Of a DNA stretch of 64,000 nucleotides, positions 2,751 to 60,408 are shown piece by piece. Each line of letters begins with the position of its first letter. Position 1 is the first letter of the stretch. This DNA comes from Dictyostelium discoideum (Eukaryota), in contig CM000151.3 of assembly GCA_000004695.1 (NCBI GenBank), positions 7,136,001 to 7,200,000 on the forward strand, read 5' to 3'. A program made the position numbers and the translations under genes. The notes under the pieces were generated by a model. That model saw only the letters and a list, made by a program, of their open reading frames with translations. It had not been told where the DNA came from and ran no database searches.

Positions 2751-4054
2751 TGTGTATATTTTTAAAAATAAAAAAATAAAAAAAAAAAAAAAATTTCGAA
2801 GATTTCTTTTTTTCATAAAAAATTTAAAAAAAAAAAATTAAAAAAAAAATAAAAAAAAAAAATAAAAAAAAATTCAAAATTTTTATGTGATTGTTCATGT
2901 TTTTTGGGAAAATTAAAATATTGTTTACAAAAAAATATATATATATATAAATATTTATTAACTCCATTATCAAATTATTATTTTAATAAAAAAAGGAGAA
3001 ACCAAACCTAATAAAAATAAAAATAATAATAAAAGATAAAAAATAAAAATAATTATAAATATAATTATAATTAAAATTCAAATAGAAAAAAATAACAATT
3101 TAAAAAAAAAATAGTTATTTTTGTTGTACATTTTAAGTAATTTACAAAAAATAAAAATTTTCTAATATTGGGGCAATTTTTGTTTTCTAATACAAATTTT
3201 TTTTTTTTTTTTTTTTATTATTATTTGAATTGTTTTTGATGTAGATTTAGTTTTTATTTATTTCCAAAAAAAAAAAAAAAAAAAAAAAAAATAAAAACTA
3301 ATAATATTTGAACACACTTTGTACATAGAAAAGATTTATTTTTGGTAGTTAAAGTGGTTATAGAGAGAGAGAGGTGGTGATAATAAATTATTATTTTTTA
3401 ATTTTTTTTAATTTTTTTTTTTTCATACACTACACACACTCGCCATAAATTCACCATATACAAAAATAATAATAAATATATTATTGATTATTGATATATA
3501 TTGATTTTTTAATTTTTTAATTATTTAATTTTTTTATTTTTTTATTTTTTTTTTTTAATTAGTTTTTTTTATTAGTTTTTTTTTTTTTTTTTTTTTCTTT
3601 TTTTAATTTGAAAATAACCCCATTACCAATTAAATACATATTCCTTTTTATTTCCAAAACAACTCCTTTGAAAGTTATCATACCAAAAAATAAATAATAT
3701 AAATAAAAATAAAAATAATAATTTAACAATCACATAAAATACCAAATTTATTATTTTTTTTTTTAAATATTTTTTTTTTATTTTTCAATTTTTTTTCTTT
3801 TCAAAATCAAAAAAAAAAAAAAAAAATTTATTAATTTAATTATTTATTTATTTATTTATTTATATCTTTTTTTTTTTTTTTTTTATTTTTTGAATTTTTA
3901 TTTTTAATAAATTAATTAATTTTATTTTTTTGTATAAATTTTTTTTTTTATTTTATAAATAATTTTAATTATTATTTATTTATTTGTAAAAAATAAAAAA
4001 ACCAATAACAAAAAAACCAATAATAAAAAAACCAATAATAAAATAAAAACCATA

Positions 4055-8625: not shown

Positions 8626-8840
8626 TTTTAAAATTAAAAATAAATTAAAGAAAAAAAAAAAGATTTAAAAAAATTAATTACACCTGTATTTATAGATTTT
8701 TATTTTTTTTAAATTTTTTCCAAAATTATCTTTTTTGAAAATCAATGTTTTTTAATTTTTTTTTTTTTTTTTTTAATTTTTAGTGTGAGATTTCCCATCC
8801 AAACTTTTTTTTTTTATTTTTTTTTTTTTTACAAAATAAT

Positions 8841-8922
8841 TATGTGTGCCGGGTTTCGATCCCGGGAATCGGTTAACGAAATGAAGCCCTGAACGTCACG
8901 CAATAACCACTCTGCCACACAC
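8841..8922 (-). ncRNA. tRNA-like sequence with an initiator-type T-loop; possible tRNA pseudogene or intron-containing tRNA
   Basis: The minus strand reads GTGTGTG-GCAG-AGTGGTTA-TTGC-...-CCGGG-ATCGAAA-CCCGG-CACACAT-A. It has a 7-bp acceptor stem (with a G1.U72 wobble pair), a D-arm with the canonical AGTGGTTA loop, and a T-arm whose loop ATCGAAA has A54/A60 as in eukaryotic tRNAi-Met. It has no U8/N9 and carries a 15-nt anticodon loop, so it is not a canonical tRNA. Confidence 0.3.
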
Positions 8923-9284
8923 TTAATTTTTTTTTTTTTTTTTTTAAATCGAAATTTTTATTATTTTTTTTTTCCAGATTATTTCTACTTAATCTTAGAA
9001 TCTTTGAGTTTTTTGGGAAATAAAAAAATAGTCAACAACCTCTCTTTTATATTAAATGAAAAAAAAAATTTCTAATTAATGGTTTTTAAGTTTAAATTCA
9101 ACATTAATTTTGGCAATCCAAAAAAAAAAAAAAAATTAATTTTTATTATTATTAGAAAAAAAAAAAAAAAATTTTTATTATTATTTTTTATTTAAATTTA
9201 ATTCGTTTATTTAATTTATAATAAAAAGTCGCCCAAATATATTAATGTTTTGTTTTGTTTTTTTTCTTTTTTTTTTTTCAATAA

Positions 9285-15076: not shown

Positions 15077-15176
15077 NNNNNNNNNNNNNNNNNNNNNNNN
15101 NNNNNNNNNNNNNNNNNNNNNNNNNNNNNNNNNNNNNNNNNNNNNNNNNNNNNNNNNNNNNNNNNNNNNNNNNNNN
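15077..15176. other. assembly gap (100 N)
   Basis: A run of n characters. It falls inside the tandem array; the B-to-C unit is about 1.8 kb, whereas the other units are about 3.7 kb. Confidence 0.99.
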
Positions 15177-38863: not shown

Positions 38864-39042
38864 CCCATGCCAAAATTAATATGGCTGCTGAAATTAATAT
38901 GATAATTTTGGCATGGGACTTATGTCTGCTAGAATTACCATATTAATTTCGGCAACCATATTAATTTTGGCATGCACAGACCAACTATTTTAGGCTAAAA
39001 TTAATATGGCTGCCGAAATTAATATGGTAATTTTGGGCACAG
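38864..39042. repeat. cluster of three roughly 48-bp imperfect palindromic units arranged direct-inverted-direct
   Basis: The unit is CCAAAATTAATATGGCTGCYGAAATTAATATGRTAATTTTGG, flanked by GCATGG. It occurs at 38864..38917, inverted at about 38929..38978, and direct at about 38995..39042. Each unit can fold into a hairpin. The cluster is GC-richer than its surroundings. Confidence 0.7.
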
Positions 39043-51625: not shown

Positions 51626-51668
<43 letters not shown>

Positions 51669-51935
51669 TTGGGTGTAGAGTGTGTTTAGTGATGTAATAT
51701 ATTTGTTGAGGTTTGATGGTAGTGCTACTGTGAGTAGTGGTGAGTTCCAATGTTTGCTAAATCTTTCGAGTTGTAGGGAGATGATGTTTTTGAATTTTTT
51801 TATTTGGTTGCTTTTTTTTCTTGTCTGATTAGTTTGCATATGTTGTTTTTTGTTCTATCCCAGGCTGTTGTTTGAGTTTTCTTTAGTTCGTGTGCTAGTA
51901 GTTGTTTTCTTAAGTTTTTGAGTGTTATTCCTTCA
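50640..51935 (-). mobile_element. cluster of truncated tRNA-gene-targeted non-LTR retroelement (TRE5-like) remnants, minus sense, with oligo(A) tails
   Basis: A G/T-rich, non-AT-biased segment spans 51663..51935 and ends about 48 bp upstream of tRNA-Phe. Its minus-sense 3' end is a 42-nt oligo(A), seen as oligo(T) at 51621..51662. Further upstream a roughly 110-bp block is duplicated (50718-50825 and 51525-51620: ttgaa(t)tggataacgcaatt(a/t)ttagttgcttc...), each copy adjacent to oligo(T) runs (50826-50884). Position and orientation fit established TRE5 behaviour of insertion about 48 bp 5' of tRNA genes. Confidence 0.45.
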
Positions 51936-51980
51936 GGAGAAATTTTATAAATATTTCTAATTTAATTTTAAAAAATATAA

Positions 51981-52054
51981 GCCTTAGTAGCTCAGTTGGT
52001 ACGAGCGTGAGACTGAAGATCTTAAGGTCGCTGGTTCGATCCCGGCCTGAGGCA
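51981..52054 (+). tRNA. tRNA-Phe (anticodon GAA)
   Basis: The sequence is GCCTTAGTAGCTCAGTTGGTACGAGCGTGAGACTGAAGATCTTAAGGTCGCTGGTTCGATCCCGGCCTGAGGCA. The A box is TAGCTCAGTTGG and the B box is GGTTCGATCC. The anticodon loop CTGAAGA carries anticodon GAA. The acceptor pairs GCCTTAG with CTGAGGC. Confidence 0.95.
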
Positions 52055-52084
52055 AAATTTCCTATTATCTTTAAGCAGATCGCT

Positions 52085-52095
52085 GGTTCGAATCC
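52085..52095 (+). promoter_or_regulatory. ex-B box (extra B-box GGTTCGAATCC) about 31 bp downstream of tRNA-Phe
   Basis: The stretch 52066..52110 (ctttaagcagatcgctGGTTCGAATCCagggttagaggca) is a degenerate duplicate of the tRNA 3' half. Ex-B boxes downstream of Dictyostelium tRNA genes are an established feature. Confidence 0.7.
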
Positions 52096-52684
52096 AGGGT
52101 TAGAGGCAGTGTTCCGACTGGGGAGGAGACAATTAGTCACACTTATGAATTCTCAAAAATAACAAAACAATAAACAAAATCATACCTATAATACCTTTCC
52201 ACATGAAAAAAGACCATAAAGTTAACATAGACTACATTCATTCAAAATTTGATGAATCACTTTTTGAATGGTGTTATAAATCATTGGATTATCATCAAAA
52301 GACACACTTTGAATTTGTAACAAAAAGCGATTACAGTAAACAAATTAAAAATATTAAAAATCAAAGACTACTGTATAATAAAATAAACACATGATATTTA
52401 AATCTTGTAGTAAATTTTTTTTTTTTTTTTTTTCAGATATTAATTAATTATTTGCAACTCTTTATTTTTATTAAATAATTATAATAATAATTATAGCTAT
52501 AAAAATAATTCACTGTATTTAAAAATTAAAACTCTTTATTTTACATTTTAAAAATAAAATTCATTAAAAAACTATTAATTAATGATTGTTTCTTTTAATG
52601 AATAAAAAAAAAAGAGTTCAAAGCGTTTTGAAAAAAAAAAAAAAAAAAAAAACAATTCTTATTTTTATATTTTTATTCATTCCT

Positions 52685-53049: not shown

Positions 53050-53407
53050 GAAAATTGAAATGATAAAAAAAAAAAAAAATTGAAAATTTTAAACAACACC
53101 CCCAACCACCATCTCAAAAAAAAAAATTATCCTTTTTTATTTTTATTATTTTTTTTTTTTTTTTTTTATCATTTTTATAAATAAATATTCATAAATAAAA
53201 AAAAAAAAAAAAAACCAACATCAATTTTTTTTTTATTTTATTTTATATATATTTTTTTTTTTGTACATAGTTATCTATTATATATTTATATATATATACA
53301 TAAAAAATCATATAAATTAATATATATAAAAAAAATAAATTAAATTAAAATTAAATAAAAATAAAAAAATAAAAAAAATAAAAAATAAAATAAAATAAAA
53401 AAAGGGG

Positions 53408-54548: not shown

Positions 54549-54631
<83 letters not shown>

Positions 54632-55733
54632 TTAGTTAGATGATATTGCAAATATTGATAGATTTAAAGAACCACCATCATCAGGACCAATGTGTGATTT
54701 ATTATGGTCAGACCCAATGGAAGAGTTTTCACCAGAGATTAGAGAACATTTTGTACCAAATGATGTTAGAGGTTGTTCATATTTATATAGTTATAGAGCA
54801 GTTTGTTCATTCCTTCAAAAGAATAAGTTATTATCAGTGATTAGAGCACATGAAGCACAGAATGCAGGTTATAAAATGCATTTACAAAATGATGCAACCG
54901 GATTCCCATCAGTGATAACATTATTCTCTGCACCAAATTATTTGGACGCCTACAACAACAAGGGTGCAGTATTACGTTATGAAAACAATGTTATGAACAT
55001 TCGTCAATTCACCTGTTCACCTCATCCTTATTGGTTACCAAATTTCATGGATGTTTTCACTTGGTCAATGCCATTCGTTTCAGAGAAAGTAGCAGAGATG
55101 TTATTGGTTCTCTTGAATCTTTGCAATGATGAAGAGGCTGAAAAGAATGAAAATGCTCAAACCGTTAAAGACACCTCTGAAGAGGAGAAAAGAAGACAAA
55201 TGCTTCGTGCCAAAGTTAAATCTGTTAGTAAAATGATGAGAATGTTCTCTTTGTTAAGACAAGAGCGTGAAACCATCATGATGATCAAATCATTCTCTCC
55301 CTCTAGAAAGATTCCTCAAGGTTTATTAACCGAGGGTAAAGACGCCTTGAAAAAGGCTTTAGGTGACTTTGCTCAAGCTCGTAAAATGGATCTAATCAAT
55401 GAAAAACGTCCACCAATCTTGGATAGAGTAAACTCTCGTGGTGAATTGCTAAGAATGAATAGTCGTGGTGAATTATTTAGAATTAACTCTAAAGGTGATC
55501 TTTTCCGTAGTAATAGTTATGCTGATTTAAAACCACCACAAGGTCCACAAGAAACTATTAAAATCACTGAATGTCATGAACAAAACATCACTACTAATAA
55601 TATTAATCCAAATTCAATAACTACAAATGAAAATAATTCAAATGAACAATTACAACAACAACAACAACAGCAACAACAACAACAACCACCAACTACTACT
55701 TCAACAACAACCCAAACTGAAGTTGCTAAATAA
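53408..55733 (+). CDS. canA: calcineurin A catalytic subunit (protein phosphatase 2B), 623 aa, four exons
   Basis: Exons are 53408..53810, 53999..54241, 54355..54482 and 54636..55733, with GTAATA, GTAATT and GTATGT donors, and are phase-consistent. The junctions recreate the conserved [47 protein letters not shown] and [14 protein letters not shown]...MCDLLWSDP motifs. The C-terminus carries the calmodulin-binding and autoinhibitory regions and a poly-Q tract. The length matches the reported Dictyostelium CanA. Confidence 0.93.
54553..54633. repeat. (TTA)n microsatellite in canA intron 3
   Basis: About 27 TTA units, read directly. Confidence 0.9.
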
Positions 55734-55922
55734 TAATTATAATATATTTTTATAATTTCCAAGAAGAAAAAAAAATATTTTAAAATAAAAAGATTTATAT
55801 AAATAAAAAAAAAAAAGTTAAATAAAAGAATTATTATTATTAGTATTATTTCTTAAAATAAAATAATAAAAATATAATAATAATAAAGTAATTTTTAAAA
55901 TTAAAAGAATAGAGAATTTAAT

Positions 55923-56185
55923 TTATTTTGAAAAGAATTTTTGTAAATCTTGTAAATTTAAGGAAACTGATTTTGATTCGAAATTAATTAAATCCTTCTT
56001 TACATCTGCTGAAAATTCACTTTCCCAAGTCAAAAGGGTTTGATTTGATTCAGTAATACGAATTAATTTAATGGTGCTAATGTAGGCAGTAACCTAAAAA
56101 AAATTTTGTTTTTTTTTTTTTTTTTTTATTATTTAAAAAAAAAGAAAATAGTTAGTATAAATTAATTAAAACTTTTTTAATAATG

Positions 56186-56220
<35 letters not shown>

Positions 56221-56573
56221 TATAAAAATAATATTACTTCAGCAGTTTGTTCACTTTCAATTAATTCATAAATGATTTTATGTGAAAGATCAGAGAGTTC
56301 TAATAATCTTTGTTTATTGGTTTCACCAGTTTTCCACTTTAAAACACGGATGGCTCCAACAGTGGTTGGTGTTGAGTCACCTTCAATAATTGAACTTTCG
56401 ATTACTGGGAAGATTTTTGATGGGAAATCGAAATTACGTAAAACATTCCATACTATTTTATTATTTAATTTTTTAATTTTTTTTTTTTTTTTATTATTAT
56501 TTTTTTTAGTTTTAGATAGTTATTAATAACTTTAAATTTTCCTTTATATGTTTTTATTTTAATTATTTATCAT

Positions 56574-56604
<31 letters not shown>

Positions 56605-56661
56605 TTTACCTTTGTCTATGTTTTCATTTAAAATTGCAGATTTTTGTACTCTTGTTGACAT
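55923..56661 (-). CDS. SRPBCC/Bet-v1-like (polyketide-cyclase fold) small protein, about 145 aa, three exons
   Basis: Exon 1 is 56610..56661 (MSTRVQKSAILNENIDK plus one nucleotide) with a GTAAAT donor. Exon 2 is 56238..56452 (VWNVLRNFDFPSKIFPVIESSIIEGDSTPTTVGAIRVLKWKTGETNKQRLLELSDLSHKIIYELIESEQTAE) with a GTAATA donor. Exon 3 is 55923..56093 (VTAYISTIKLIRITESNQTLLTWESEFSADVKKDLINFESKSVSLNLQDLQKFFSK*). Confidence 0.65.
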
Positions 56662-57757
56662 TGTGTTATTATTTGTGTGAAAAAAAAAAAAAAAAATAAT
56701 AAAAATTAAAAATTTTAATAATGTGAAATTAAAAAAAAAAATTTAAAAAAAAAAAAAATAAAATAAAATTAAAATTAAATTAAATTTTAAAAGATTTGAT
56801 GTTCATCCATTGCCATTTTTTATCAAAAGATTTTTTTTTTTTTTTTTTTTTTGATTGAACATTATATATCTTTTATTTTTTATGTATCTTTTATTTTTTT
56901 TTTATTGGTTCTTCCCCTCTGTTTTTTTTTTTTTAAAAAATTAAATATATTTTATTTATTTATTTATAACTTTATTTTATTTTAAATTCATTTTAAAATA
57001 CAAATTTAATAATTATTCAAGAAAAAAAAAAAAAATAATAACAATTATCAATAATATTATTTTAAATTAACCCTATTATTCGCCATAAAAAAAAAAAAAA
57101 AAAAAAAAAAAAGATAATTATCCAAGAAAAAATAAATAAAAATAAAAACAATGTGATGGTTTTACAATAATTCATATGAATTTTTTCTATCAATCAAATT
57201 GCAACATTAATGAGTAAATCTACTTAAAAATAATACTGTTATTATCATTTACAAATTCTTATAAAAAAAATAAAAAAAAAAATTAAAATAATAAAAAAGA
57301 AAATGAATATTTAAAATAAAACCCACTACCACTAACCTATAAATAATTAAAATATTAATAACTACAAAAAAATAGAAAAAAAAAAAAAATAATAATAATA
57401 TTAAAATAATAAAATTATCATACACAGAATAATTACTATGGGGAAAATTTAGTTTACAAATTTTTATTATTATTATTTAACCCATTTTTGTTTCTATGGA
57501 AGAATGTTTTTTTCCATATAATTTTGGAAGTGTGAGTTTGCGCAGTGTGTTAGTGTGGGTTTAATGAGAGTGTTTTTTTTTTTTTTTTTTTTTTTTTTTT
57601 GAACGTACATATTTATTTGTTTTTATTAATATTTCATAAATGAATTTGTAAATATAAAAATAAATTGTTTTTTTTTATTTTATTTTTTTGATTATGACAA
57701 TAATTTCAATAAAATGTAAAATATGATAAAAATAATTTTAATTATTGAAACACACAC

Positions 57758-57960
57758 ACTCACTCACTTTTTCCCACTAGTATTACACTTTCCAATGAAA
57801 AATAAATTAATATTGAAAAATAAAAAAATGGAAAAAAATGAAAAATAAAAATAATTAAATAAACAATAATATTACAAACACACTATTTCTTTCTCTCACC
57901 CACACAACCAATATACTAACACTTCTCATACACCCACCAACACACCTACACCCAGTTCAA
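57758..57960 (+). promoter_or_regulatory. CA-rich (CACACAC/CACCC) element cluster about 420-620 bp upstream of the spore-coat-like gene
   Basis: Examples are acacacactcactcac, ctctcacccacacaacc and catacacccaccaacacacctacaccc. These are C-rich in a genome of about 22% GC. They resemble the CAE/G-box-binding-factor elements of prespore cot-gene promoters. A GT-rich counterpart lies at 57520-57560. Confidence 0.5.
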
Positions 57961-58375
57961 CACATTCATACACAAAGTTTAATATTACACTTTAAAAAAC
58001 ATTCATATTAATGATTTTTATGATTTATTTATTTATTAATTTATTTAATTGTGTATTTTGATTATTGCTCTCTACTTTTTATATATTTTTTTTCAAATTT
58101 TATTATTATTTCAATTATTATTATTTTTTCCAGTACAAAGTACAAAAAAAAAAAAAAAAAAAAAAAAACCAAAAAAAAAAAAAAATTATTTATATTATTA
58201 CAAATAAAACAGTAACATTAAATATTAATAATTAGATACATTGAAAAAAAAAGAAATAATAATAATTAAGAATAAAAAAAAAAAAAAACTATAATAACAT
58301 TTCAATTGTATTTAAAAAAAAAAAAAAAATCTCATATACATATACCATTAATATAGTAAAAGTACCAGTAATAAA

Positions 58376-58698
58376 ATGAGAATATTAAAATTGGCAGCAC
58401 TTAGTTGCTTATTATTTATAGCACCATCACTTTCAATTAGTAAGTTTTTAGATTTATTTTTTATTATAAAAATAAATTAGATTTTTTCTTTTTTAAGATT
58501 AAAAAATAATTGGATTTATTTTAAAAAATAAATAATAAATATTAAACTATAATAAAATATAAAATAATAATAAATTAAAAACAATTACATAATATGAATT
58601 AAAATAATAACATAATTAAAATAAAATAAAAATAAAATAATAATAATAAAAATAATAATAATATATAAAAATATATAAAGTTAATAAAATTAAAATAT

Positions 58699-58737
<39 letters not shown>

Positions 58738-60288
58738 GATTGCGATGGTTTATCAAAAGATCAATGTGAACAAAACTTTCCTCAATGTCAAATTTTAACT
58801 GCAAAGAGTTGTTGTGGTGAAAGTAAATCATATTGTGCTGAAAGAGATAGTAACGATTGTCTTGCTAGTAAAATTTCATGTAAAAAGGATCCTCAAGGTA
58901 ATATTTATGAATTTTGGAGTAGTTGTACACCAAGTAGTGGTTTCACAGATTTTATTCCATCCAATGCAACATGTTCATCATTAAATTGTAATGCTCAACA
59001 AATGAGTTGCAAATATGTTCAACAAGCATGTCATGAAACATCATGTTGTCCTGATATTCCTCAATGTCAAATTCCTGCAACTGGCGGTGGCCCAGCTACT
59101 GGAAGTGCAACTGGTCAAGGCACATCAGGTGGTACACCAGGTTCTTGTGATAAAGTTAATTGTCCAAATGGTTACATTTGTACAATAGTAAATCAATTAG
59201 CAGTATGTGTTTCTCCATCATCCTCTTCGTCAAGTTCTTCATCAACCACTGGCTCACATACTACCACTGGTGGTTCAACCACTGGCTCACATACTACTAC
59301 TGGTGGTTCAACCACTGGCTCACATACTACTACTGGTGGTTCAACCACTGGCTCACATACTACTACTGGTGGTTCAACCACTGGCTCACATACTACTACT
59401 GGTGGTTCAACTACTGGTCCAACATGTGGTAATGTTAACTGCCCAAGAGGTTACCATTGTGAAGTTAGAGGTTCCCAAGCTGTTTGTGTTGCCGATGAAT
59501 TTGACTCATGTGCCAATGTTGATTGTGGTTCAGGTTACCATTGTAAGAATGGTGAATGTATTCGTGATAAAGTAGAATGCGATGCATGTGATCAAATTAA
59601 CTGCCCAAAGGGTCATCATTGTATATCTCAACCAAAAGGTGGCTGGATTGGTTCCCATAAGAAACGTCACTGGCAATTACACCCAGAACATTGTGGCGGA
59701 CGTCCAAATAAGATTAAAGTCATCTGTGTTCCATCACCAAAAGGTACTTGCAAGACTGTTCAATGTCCAAAAGGTTACAAATGCAAACTCTATGCTGATG
59801 GTCCAACATGTGTAAAGATTGAAAAACCAAAATGTCTCACTTGTAAAGATATGCATTGTGAGTCAAATGGATTACTCTGTGTCTTGACTCCACAAAAGAA
59901 GACTGATGAAGAATGTTGTCCAATTATTCCAATCTGTATCAATCCATCAACTATTGCCGCATCCACTATTGCCACTACAACTGCATCAACTCGTCACTCA
60001 ACTGCCTCAACAATTGCCTCATTAGTCACTGGTACCACAAGTGGTGGTGGTGGTATGGGTTCATTTGGTGGTCGATCCGATGAAGAATCAAGTGATCCAA
60101 ATGCTATACTTGGTCTCTTTGAAGACGATATTTTCTGGGGTGATAATGATGAATACTTTAGTGATAACTACCGTTATGTTGATGAAGAAGATATTGATGA
60201 AGATTTCAATGGTAATGATGAATTTGAAATTGATGTTGAAGGTGATTTCCAAGAAGATGATTTCGAAGAAGAATATGCATTTTATTAA
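58376..60288 (+). CDS. secreted spore-coat/EcmA-type Cys-rich repeat protein with five TTGSHTTTGGS mucin-like repeats and an acidic C-terminus (about 537 aa, two exons)
   Basis: Exon 1 is 58376..58439 (signal peptide MRILKLAALSCLLFIAPSLSI) with a GTAAGT donor. The intron ends at AG 58737-38. Exon 2 is 58739..60288, continuous with ORF 59002. Repeated CxxxNCP(N/R/K)GYxC...C modules occur (VNCPNGYICT, VNCPRGYHCEV, VDCGSGYHCKNGEC, INCPKGHHC, VQCPKGYKCK). Confidence 0.75.
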
Positions 60289-60408
60289 ATTAAACTTTTT
60301 TTCATAAAAAAATAATAATAATAATTTAATAACTAATCATTATCATCAATAATAACATTATAATATTACTTTAATAACAATACTTTTTTTTAATATTCAA
60401 AGACTTTA

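Follow-up and report, generated by a model that had tools for sequence, protein, structure and literature searches.

Descriptions of CA-rich GBF sites in the promoters of spore coat genes date back to the early 1990s. The cotB gene is among the most used prespore markers, and many published reporter and expression constructs rely on its promoter. In 1993 Fosnaugh and Loomis dissected the promoter of a spore coat gene (Dev Biol 157:38); that study reportedly concerned the cotB upstream region, and its title speaks of "enhancer regions" in the plural. The zinc-finger factor GBF (GbfA) was originally found on G-rich motifs in cprB, a prestalk gene. The response element published for GBF is (T/G)G(T/G)G(T/G)G(T/G) (PMC2257962), and GBF is needed for post-aggregative genes of both the prestalk and the prespore kind, with expression regulated through cAMP receptors (PMC2257962, PMC6598861). 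The promoter of cotC contains multiple GBF sites, together with an AT-rich region and CudA-binding regions (PMC3253789).

Here we compare with these systems a Dictyostelium discoideum locus at which CA-rich and GT-rich runs had been noticed upstream of a gene described in the original prediction as spore-coat-like, with cotB and cotC as the precedent. The assignment to the spore coat was correct, although the gene had not been recognised as cotB itself.

The gene downstream of the CA-rich and GT-rich sequence is cotB

The window (the whole stretch of D. discoideum DNA that was analysed, 64,000 nucleotides long) is very AT-rich, with an intergenic GC content of about 11-20% and genes of dictyostelid structure. 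Within it, a 1.7-kb spacer at 56661-58375 separates two divergently transcribed genes, of which cotB is the one on the plus side. The two genes have the following features:

55900-56660, minus strand: divergent neighbour gene of 145 amino acids with a Polyketide_cyc2 domain (PF10604), start codon at about 56660; the domain is taken from the syntenic gene calls in L001, L002 and L004
58376-58439, plus strand: cotB exon 1, ATG at 58376 and a signal-peptide-like N terminus (gene model and translation)
58440-58738, plus strand: cotB intron, GT...AG and AT-rich; its removal yields exactly the SP70 protein
58739-60289, plus strand: cotB exon 2 including the stop codon, with Dicty_spore_N, Cys-rich repeats, five TTGSHTTTGGS repeats and an acidic C terminus

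By protein comparison, the 537-residue product is identical at all 537 positions to SP70 of D. discoideum AX4 (XP_642813.1 / P15269, SP70_DICDI), and the gene downstream of the CA and GT elements is cotB, which encodes this spore coat protein. The match to the cluster representative P0001 is 97%, and the shortfall is a short frame-shifted stretch in P0001, which is an older entry. Pfam places Dicty_spore_N (PF04562) at SP70 residues 22-132 (E = 1.4e-28, 100.4 bits). Translation bears out the mucin-like TTGSHTTTGGS repeats that had been predicted, five of which lie at 59245-59409, and also the Cys-rich repeats. The latter had been called EcmA/Cot-type, and the "EcmA-type" part of that label lacks Pfam support: Dicty_spore_N alone was reported for SP70, and the EcmA-type Cys repeat (Dicty_CTDC, the 24-residue repeat of EcmA and EcmB) had no match even at E <= 10, in a search whose HMMER filters discard most very weak matches and which a distant EcmA-type kinship could therefore escape.

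Gene order is the same in all four assemblies compared: a calcineurin-A-like (Metallophos) gene comes first, then the minus-strand Polyketide_cyc2 gene, then cotB. The calcineurin-A-like gene has a coding stretch at 54643-55733, directly preceded by a long (ATT)n microsatellite (54552-54632) that is probably in an intron. We rejected the possibility that the spacer conceals an RNA gene or tRNA, as neither Rfam nor ARAGORN gave a match in 56661-58375. This includes a conserved non-coding block at 57150-57229, mid-way in the divergent spacer (AATGTGATGGTTTTACAATAATTCATATGAATTTTTTCTATCAATCAAATTGCAACATTAATGAG; 85-93% identical to D. citrinum), for which there was likewise no Rfam or tRNA match.

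Elsewhere in the window, Rfam reported the mir-7131 microRNA precursor family at 38876-38964, matched on each strand with 95 and 88 bits against a gathering score of 74. There is a tRNA-Phe(GAA) at 51981-52054, with a second B-box-like sequence, gatcgctggttcgaatccagggt, about 25 bp downstream of it and about 300 bp of G/T-skewed, non-AT-rich sequence upstream; this region (51640-52100) might be the end of a putative tRNA-targeted retroelement. An 86-nt tRNA-Leu(CAG) on the minus strand at 8840-8925 was called by ARAGORN and was not reported by Rfam at the gathering threshold. The window also contains an assembly gap of 100 N at 15077-15176.

Two CA-rich blocks and a GT-rich stretch upstream of cotB

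Between the two start codons, on the cotB side of the spacer, we distinguish the following elements:

57527-57572, minus strand: GT-rich stretch (CA-rich on the minus strand), GAAGTGTGAGTTTGCGCAGTGTGTTAGTGTGGGTTTAATGAGAGTG
57748-57777, plus strand: distal CA-rich block, aaACACACACACTCACTCACTTTTTCCCAC
57875-57975, plus strand: proximal CA-rich block, CAAACACACTATTTCTTTCTCTCACCCACACAACCAATATACTAACACTTCTCATACACCCACCAACACACCTACACCCAGTTCAACACATTCATACACAAAG
58003-58140, plus strand: conserved AT-rich block directly 3' of the CA cluster, with TATATAT and a T-run at 58080-58093
58080-58093 (the TATA/T-run) and about 58291 (TATAATAA): start-site candidates

The CACACAC and CACCC runs had been described as a single stretch of 200 bp at 57758-57960. 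The runs are real, but they form two blocks and not one continuous stretch; CACACAC begins at 57751, and CA-richness continues to about 57975. Between the blocks lie about 95 bp of A-rich sequence (57778-57874) with about seven C residues, most of them in its first 20 bp. For GBF-type heptamers we scanned with MCMCMCM, which is the complement of KGKGKGK, and all distances below are counted from the cotB ATG. The distal block consists of ACACACACAC, with overlapping heptamers at 57750 and 57752 (-626 and -624), followed by CTCACTCAC and CCCAC. In the proximal block, heptamers are found at 57898/57900 (CACCCACACAA), 57930/57932 (ACACCCACC), 57940 (ACACACC) and 57948 (ACACCCA), that is, from -478 to -428, and TACACCCA is present twice, 18 bp apart.

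The CA motif cluster is clearly strand-specific and clustered far beyond chance. The 100 bp at 57874-57973 contain 40 C and only one G, which is the strongest C-over-G skew per 100 bp in the whole window, coding sequence included. Starts of CACAC, CACCC, CCCAC or ACACC number 15 in the 250 bp at 57700-57949, and the runner-up among 250-bp stretches of the 64-kb window has three. Simulating the window 200 times with a first-order Markov model gave, for the richest 250-bp stretch on either strand, a mean of 3.6 such starts and a maximum of 6.

A GTGTG-rich stretch had been reported further upstream, at 57520-57560. It is present, at 57527-57572, though it is not exceptional in the window: five 46-nt stretches are comparable to one another in their GT-rich composition, this one among them, and its count of four motifs per 250 bp is inside the simulation range. 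Taken alone, therefore, the GT-rich stretch is not beyond chance. It contains GTGTG at 57530, 57545 and 57553 and one strict GBF-type heptamer, GTGTGGG at 57554-57560 (-822), which makes it a candidate inverted CA-rich element or G-box. The idea that the CA and GT blocks are the arms of an inverted repeat was rejected, because the inverted repeats found there are only pairings of A-runs with T-runs.

The CA-rich blocks fit the GBF consensus

Across the window, MCMCMCM has 32 matches on both strands, compared to 19.3 +/- 4.3 in dinucleotide shuffles, none of which reached 32. Nine of the 32 are within 57554-57954, and without these nine the window is at the chance level. The plus-strand matches number 14, and more than half of them are in the two CA blocks (eight matches, at 57750, 57752, 57898, 57900, 57930, 57932, 57940 and 57948, spanning -626 to -428); near cotB there is a single inverted match on the minus strand, the GTGTGGG at 57554. 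GBF binding requires two or more closely placed half-sites, and those at 57930, 57940 and 57948 all lie inside 25 bp. The position of the CA elements is also that expected of CA-rich elements (CAEs) and G-boxes, upstream of a post-aggregative, cAMP-inducible gene, which cotB is on its published expression. A short, isolated C-rich element at 53090-53112 (caacacccccaaccaccatctc) also has two overlapping GBF-type heptamers; it belongs to the AT-rich spacer that precedes the calcineurin-A-like (Metallophos) gene.

Conservation of the promoter in D. citrinum and other assemblies

We compared the locus to its counterparts in D. citrinum (L001; cotB protein 74% identical) and in two further D. discoideum assemblies (L002 and L004), and to the cotA locus (L003); cotC and the more distant dictyostelids were outside the comparison. 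A protein search for further relatives with the N-terminal 181 residues gave none, and a profile search built from the four family members returned the same four proteins only, with a candidate list saturated by low-complexity repeats. Identity to D. citrinum, in ungapped columns, differs among parts of the locus as follows:

cotB intron: 66%
3' spacer between the calcineurin-like and Polyketide_cyc2 genes: 68%
whole 5' spacer: 84%
cotB coding exon 2: 86%
CA cluster, 57918-57975: 94%
AT-rich block, 58003-58140: 98%

The values of 98% for the AT-rich block and 94% for the CA cluster, against 66% for the intron, indicate that the cotB promoter is under constraint, within the limited footprinting resolution given by a close relative whose whole spacer is 84% identical. 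The AT-rich block is the most constrained part of the promoter, above the cotB coding sequence as well as the intron. It is a candidate for the core promoter, for a counterpart of the AT-rich region that is essential in cotC, or for both.

By alignment of the four spacers and motif scanning, the heptamers are found at nearly equal distances from the ATG in each sequence. The distal block persists in all of them, at -545 in D. citrinum and about -615 in L002 and L004. Of the proximal block, D. citrinum has kept the three 3' sites, at -426 to -399, and in the other D. discoideum assemblies the heptamers of this block lie at about -483 to -423. A 39-bp piece at 57879-57917, which carries the 57898 site (CACCCACACAA), is absent from D. 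citrinum, and the AX4 sequence, to which the window is identical, is without 4 bp (CACC) in the most proximal element (at about 57950) that the other three sequences have. GT-richness of the upstream stretch is kept in D. citrinum and in both other D. discoideum assemblies, with the strict heptamer changed to GAGTGGG in L002 and L004. Because one heptamer (57898) is missing in D. citrinum and the GT heptamer is lost in two assemblies, not every site is constrained.

The paralogous locus cotA/SP96 (P0004, L003) has a GT-rich cluster on its coding strand at -590 to -460 (positions 2410-2545 of L003, in which the ATG is at 3001). It also has a TGTGTGG / ACACCCA pair further upstream, at -848 and -832.

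Expression of cotB and a proposed mechanism

From the promoter elements, the original prediction expected prespore or spore-coat expression, and this agrees with what has been published on cotB. It is a standard prespore marker that is up-regulated between 11 and 12 h in a time course with 1-hour sampling (PMC4403905), and a second time course places its induction between 8 and 12 h (PMC12142906). cotB and cotC are co-regulated and are repressed by DIF, and dimB-null slugs mis-express cotB:lacZ in their pstO region (PMC3253789). The cotB promoter is in routine use as a prespore-specific promoter (PMC3515798), and cotB is one of the targets of SpaA in ChIP-seq, in a paper that does not give a SpaA motif (PMC5923282). 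Vegetative or prestalk-specific expression, the patterns named as incompatible with the prediction, is not what these studies report. In the fruiting body, cup cells have very high levels of cotB and cotE transcripts, above those in mature spores (PMC6198379), so late cotB expression is not confined to the spore lineage or purely prespore.

We consider it very probable that cotB has its 5' regulatory region here, in which the CA blocks, and probably also the inverted GT-rich stretch, are its CAEs. The CA blocks would be arrays of GBF half-sites, the C-strand form of the G-box, and their occupancy by GBF is what the consensus matches lead us to expect, as the AT-rich block's part in regulation is what its conservation and position suggest. 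On this model, extracellular cAMP, acting through cAMP receptors after aggregation, would make GBF competent to activate, and GBF on the clustered half-sites would then turn cotB on at the mound stage. The original prediction went further in taking the CA-rich elements to imply prespore expression. GBF-type elements are indeed present at a prespore gene, but prestalk genes use GBF sites as well, so what the CA elements account for is post-aggregative, cAMP-dependent induction and not prespore specificity. Restriction to prespore cells would come from inputs other than the CAEs: by analogy with cotC, an AT-rich element and CudA regions, together with the binding of SpaA and, in prestalk cells, repression that depends on DIF/DimB.

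Alternative explanations

A neutral origin, in which the CA and GT runs are low-complexity sequence in an AT-rich spacer, for instance from microsatellite-like CA slippage, and have no regulatory role, would account for the simple (CA)5 run within the distal block, for the indels inside the cluster between strains and species (the 39-bp piece and the 4-bp CACC), and for a GT stretch that is not statistically exceptional. It does not account for a cluster that is unique in 64 kb and far above the simulations, that is made up mostly of varied ACACCCA, ACCCACC and ACACACC heptamers instead of a simple repeat, and that is still in place in D. citrinum, where its ungapped identity is 94% compared to 66% in the intron. 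The motifs moreover match the consensus of a published factor, and the paralogue cotA has an equivalent cluster; we regard a neutral origin as very improbable. The consensus itself is loose, with 19 chance matches expected per 64 kb, so that the likeness could be incidental and the CA blocks could act through a factor other than GBF, such as SpaA (of which cotB is a ChIP-seq target, with no motif given in that paper), CudA or another CA-binding protein. The density of consensus matches at the cluster is about 100-fold above background, and the literature on the co-regulated cotC also speaks against another factor, which we consider improbable.

Some of the elements, above all the GT stretch at 57527-57572, might regulate the divergent Polyketide_cyc2 gene instead of cotB or in addition to it, and the spacer would then be a bidirectional regulatory region. 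The distance from the GT stretch to the neighbour's ATG (about 870 bp) is nearly that to the cotB ATG (about 820 bp), which puts it roughly halfway, the order of the genes is the same in all four assemblies, and GBF-type sites have been proposed to serve opposite gene pairs in the sigN clusters (PMC2257962). The main CA cluster, on the other hand, is much closer to the cotB ATG (0.4-0.6 kb) than to the neighbour's start (about 1.1-1.3 kb), and we think regulation of the neighbour unlikely. A further suggestion, and one that we doubt, is that natural variation in the number of CA elements (the 39-bp piece with CACCCACACAA and the CACC loss seen only in AX4) tunes the output of cotB, and that the blocks at 57150-57229 and 58003-58140 carry prespore specificity, possibly shared with the divergent neighbour.

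Comparison with known GBF-regulated promoters

The CA cluster at cotB is already known, and to find it here is to rediscover textbook cis-elements at the gene by which they are defined. The presence of two CA-rich blocks agrees with the plural "enhancer regions" in the title of the 1993 Fosnaugh and Loomis dissection, which reportedly covered the same upstream sequence. The case thus serves as a positive control, in which reading of the DNA alone recovered a true cis-regulatory cluster.

The CA blocks of cotB have a close parallel in the CAEs of the co-regulated prespore gene cotC (SP60), which GBF binds. Both genes have strand-biased clusters of ACACCC/CACAC heptamers that fit the GBF element, a few hundred base pairs upstream, with AT-rich sequence after them. 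They differ in that cotB has its own number and spacing of candidate sites, arranged as two blocks and one inverted distal site. The AT-rich block of cotB may be equivalent to the AT-rich region of cotC, and it is a sensible target for the question of what confers prespore specificity.

The cotA (SP96) gene is a paralogous spore coat gene and has a GBF-type cluster at a similar distance from its ATG (-590 to -460). Its orientation is inverted relative to that of cotB, the coding strand being GT-rich, and it has fewer strict heptamers.

The G-boxes of cprB/CP2 and of the sigN genes resemble the cotB elements in having the GBF consensus, on the other strand, and in a GBF-dependent induction at the mound stage, but these genes, unlike cotB, are prestalk-enriched. 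Since prestalk-enriched genes also have GBF elements, this class of element signals timing and cAMP dependence and not prespore fate, and we caution that a GBF-type element should be read as a mark of post-aggregative, cAMP-dependent timing, at cotB as at cprB and sigN, and not as a mark of cell type.
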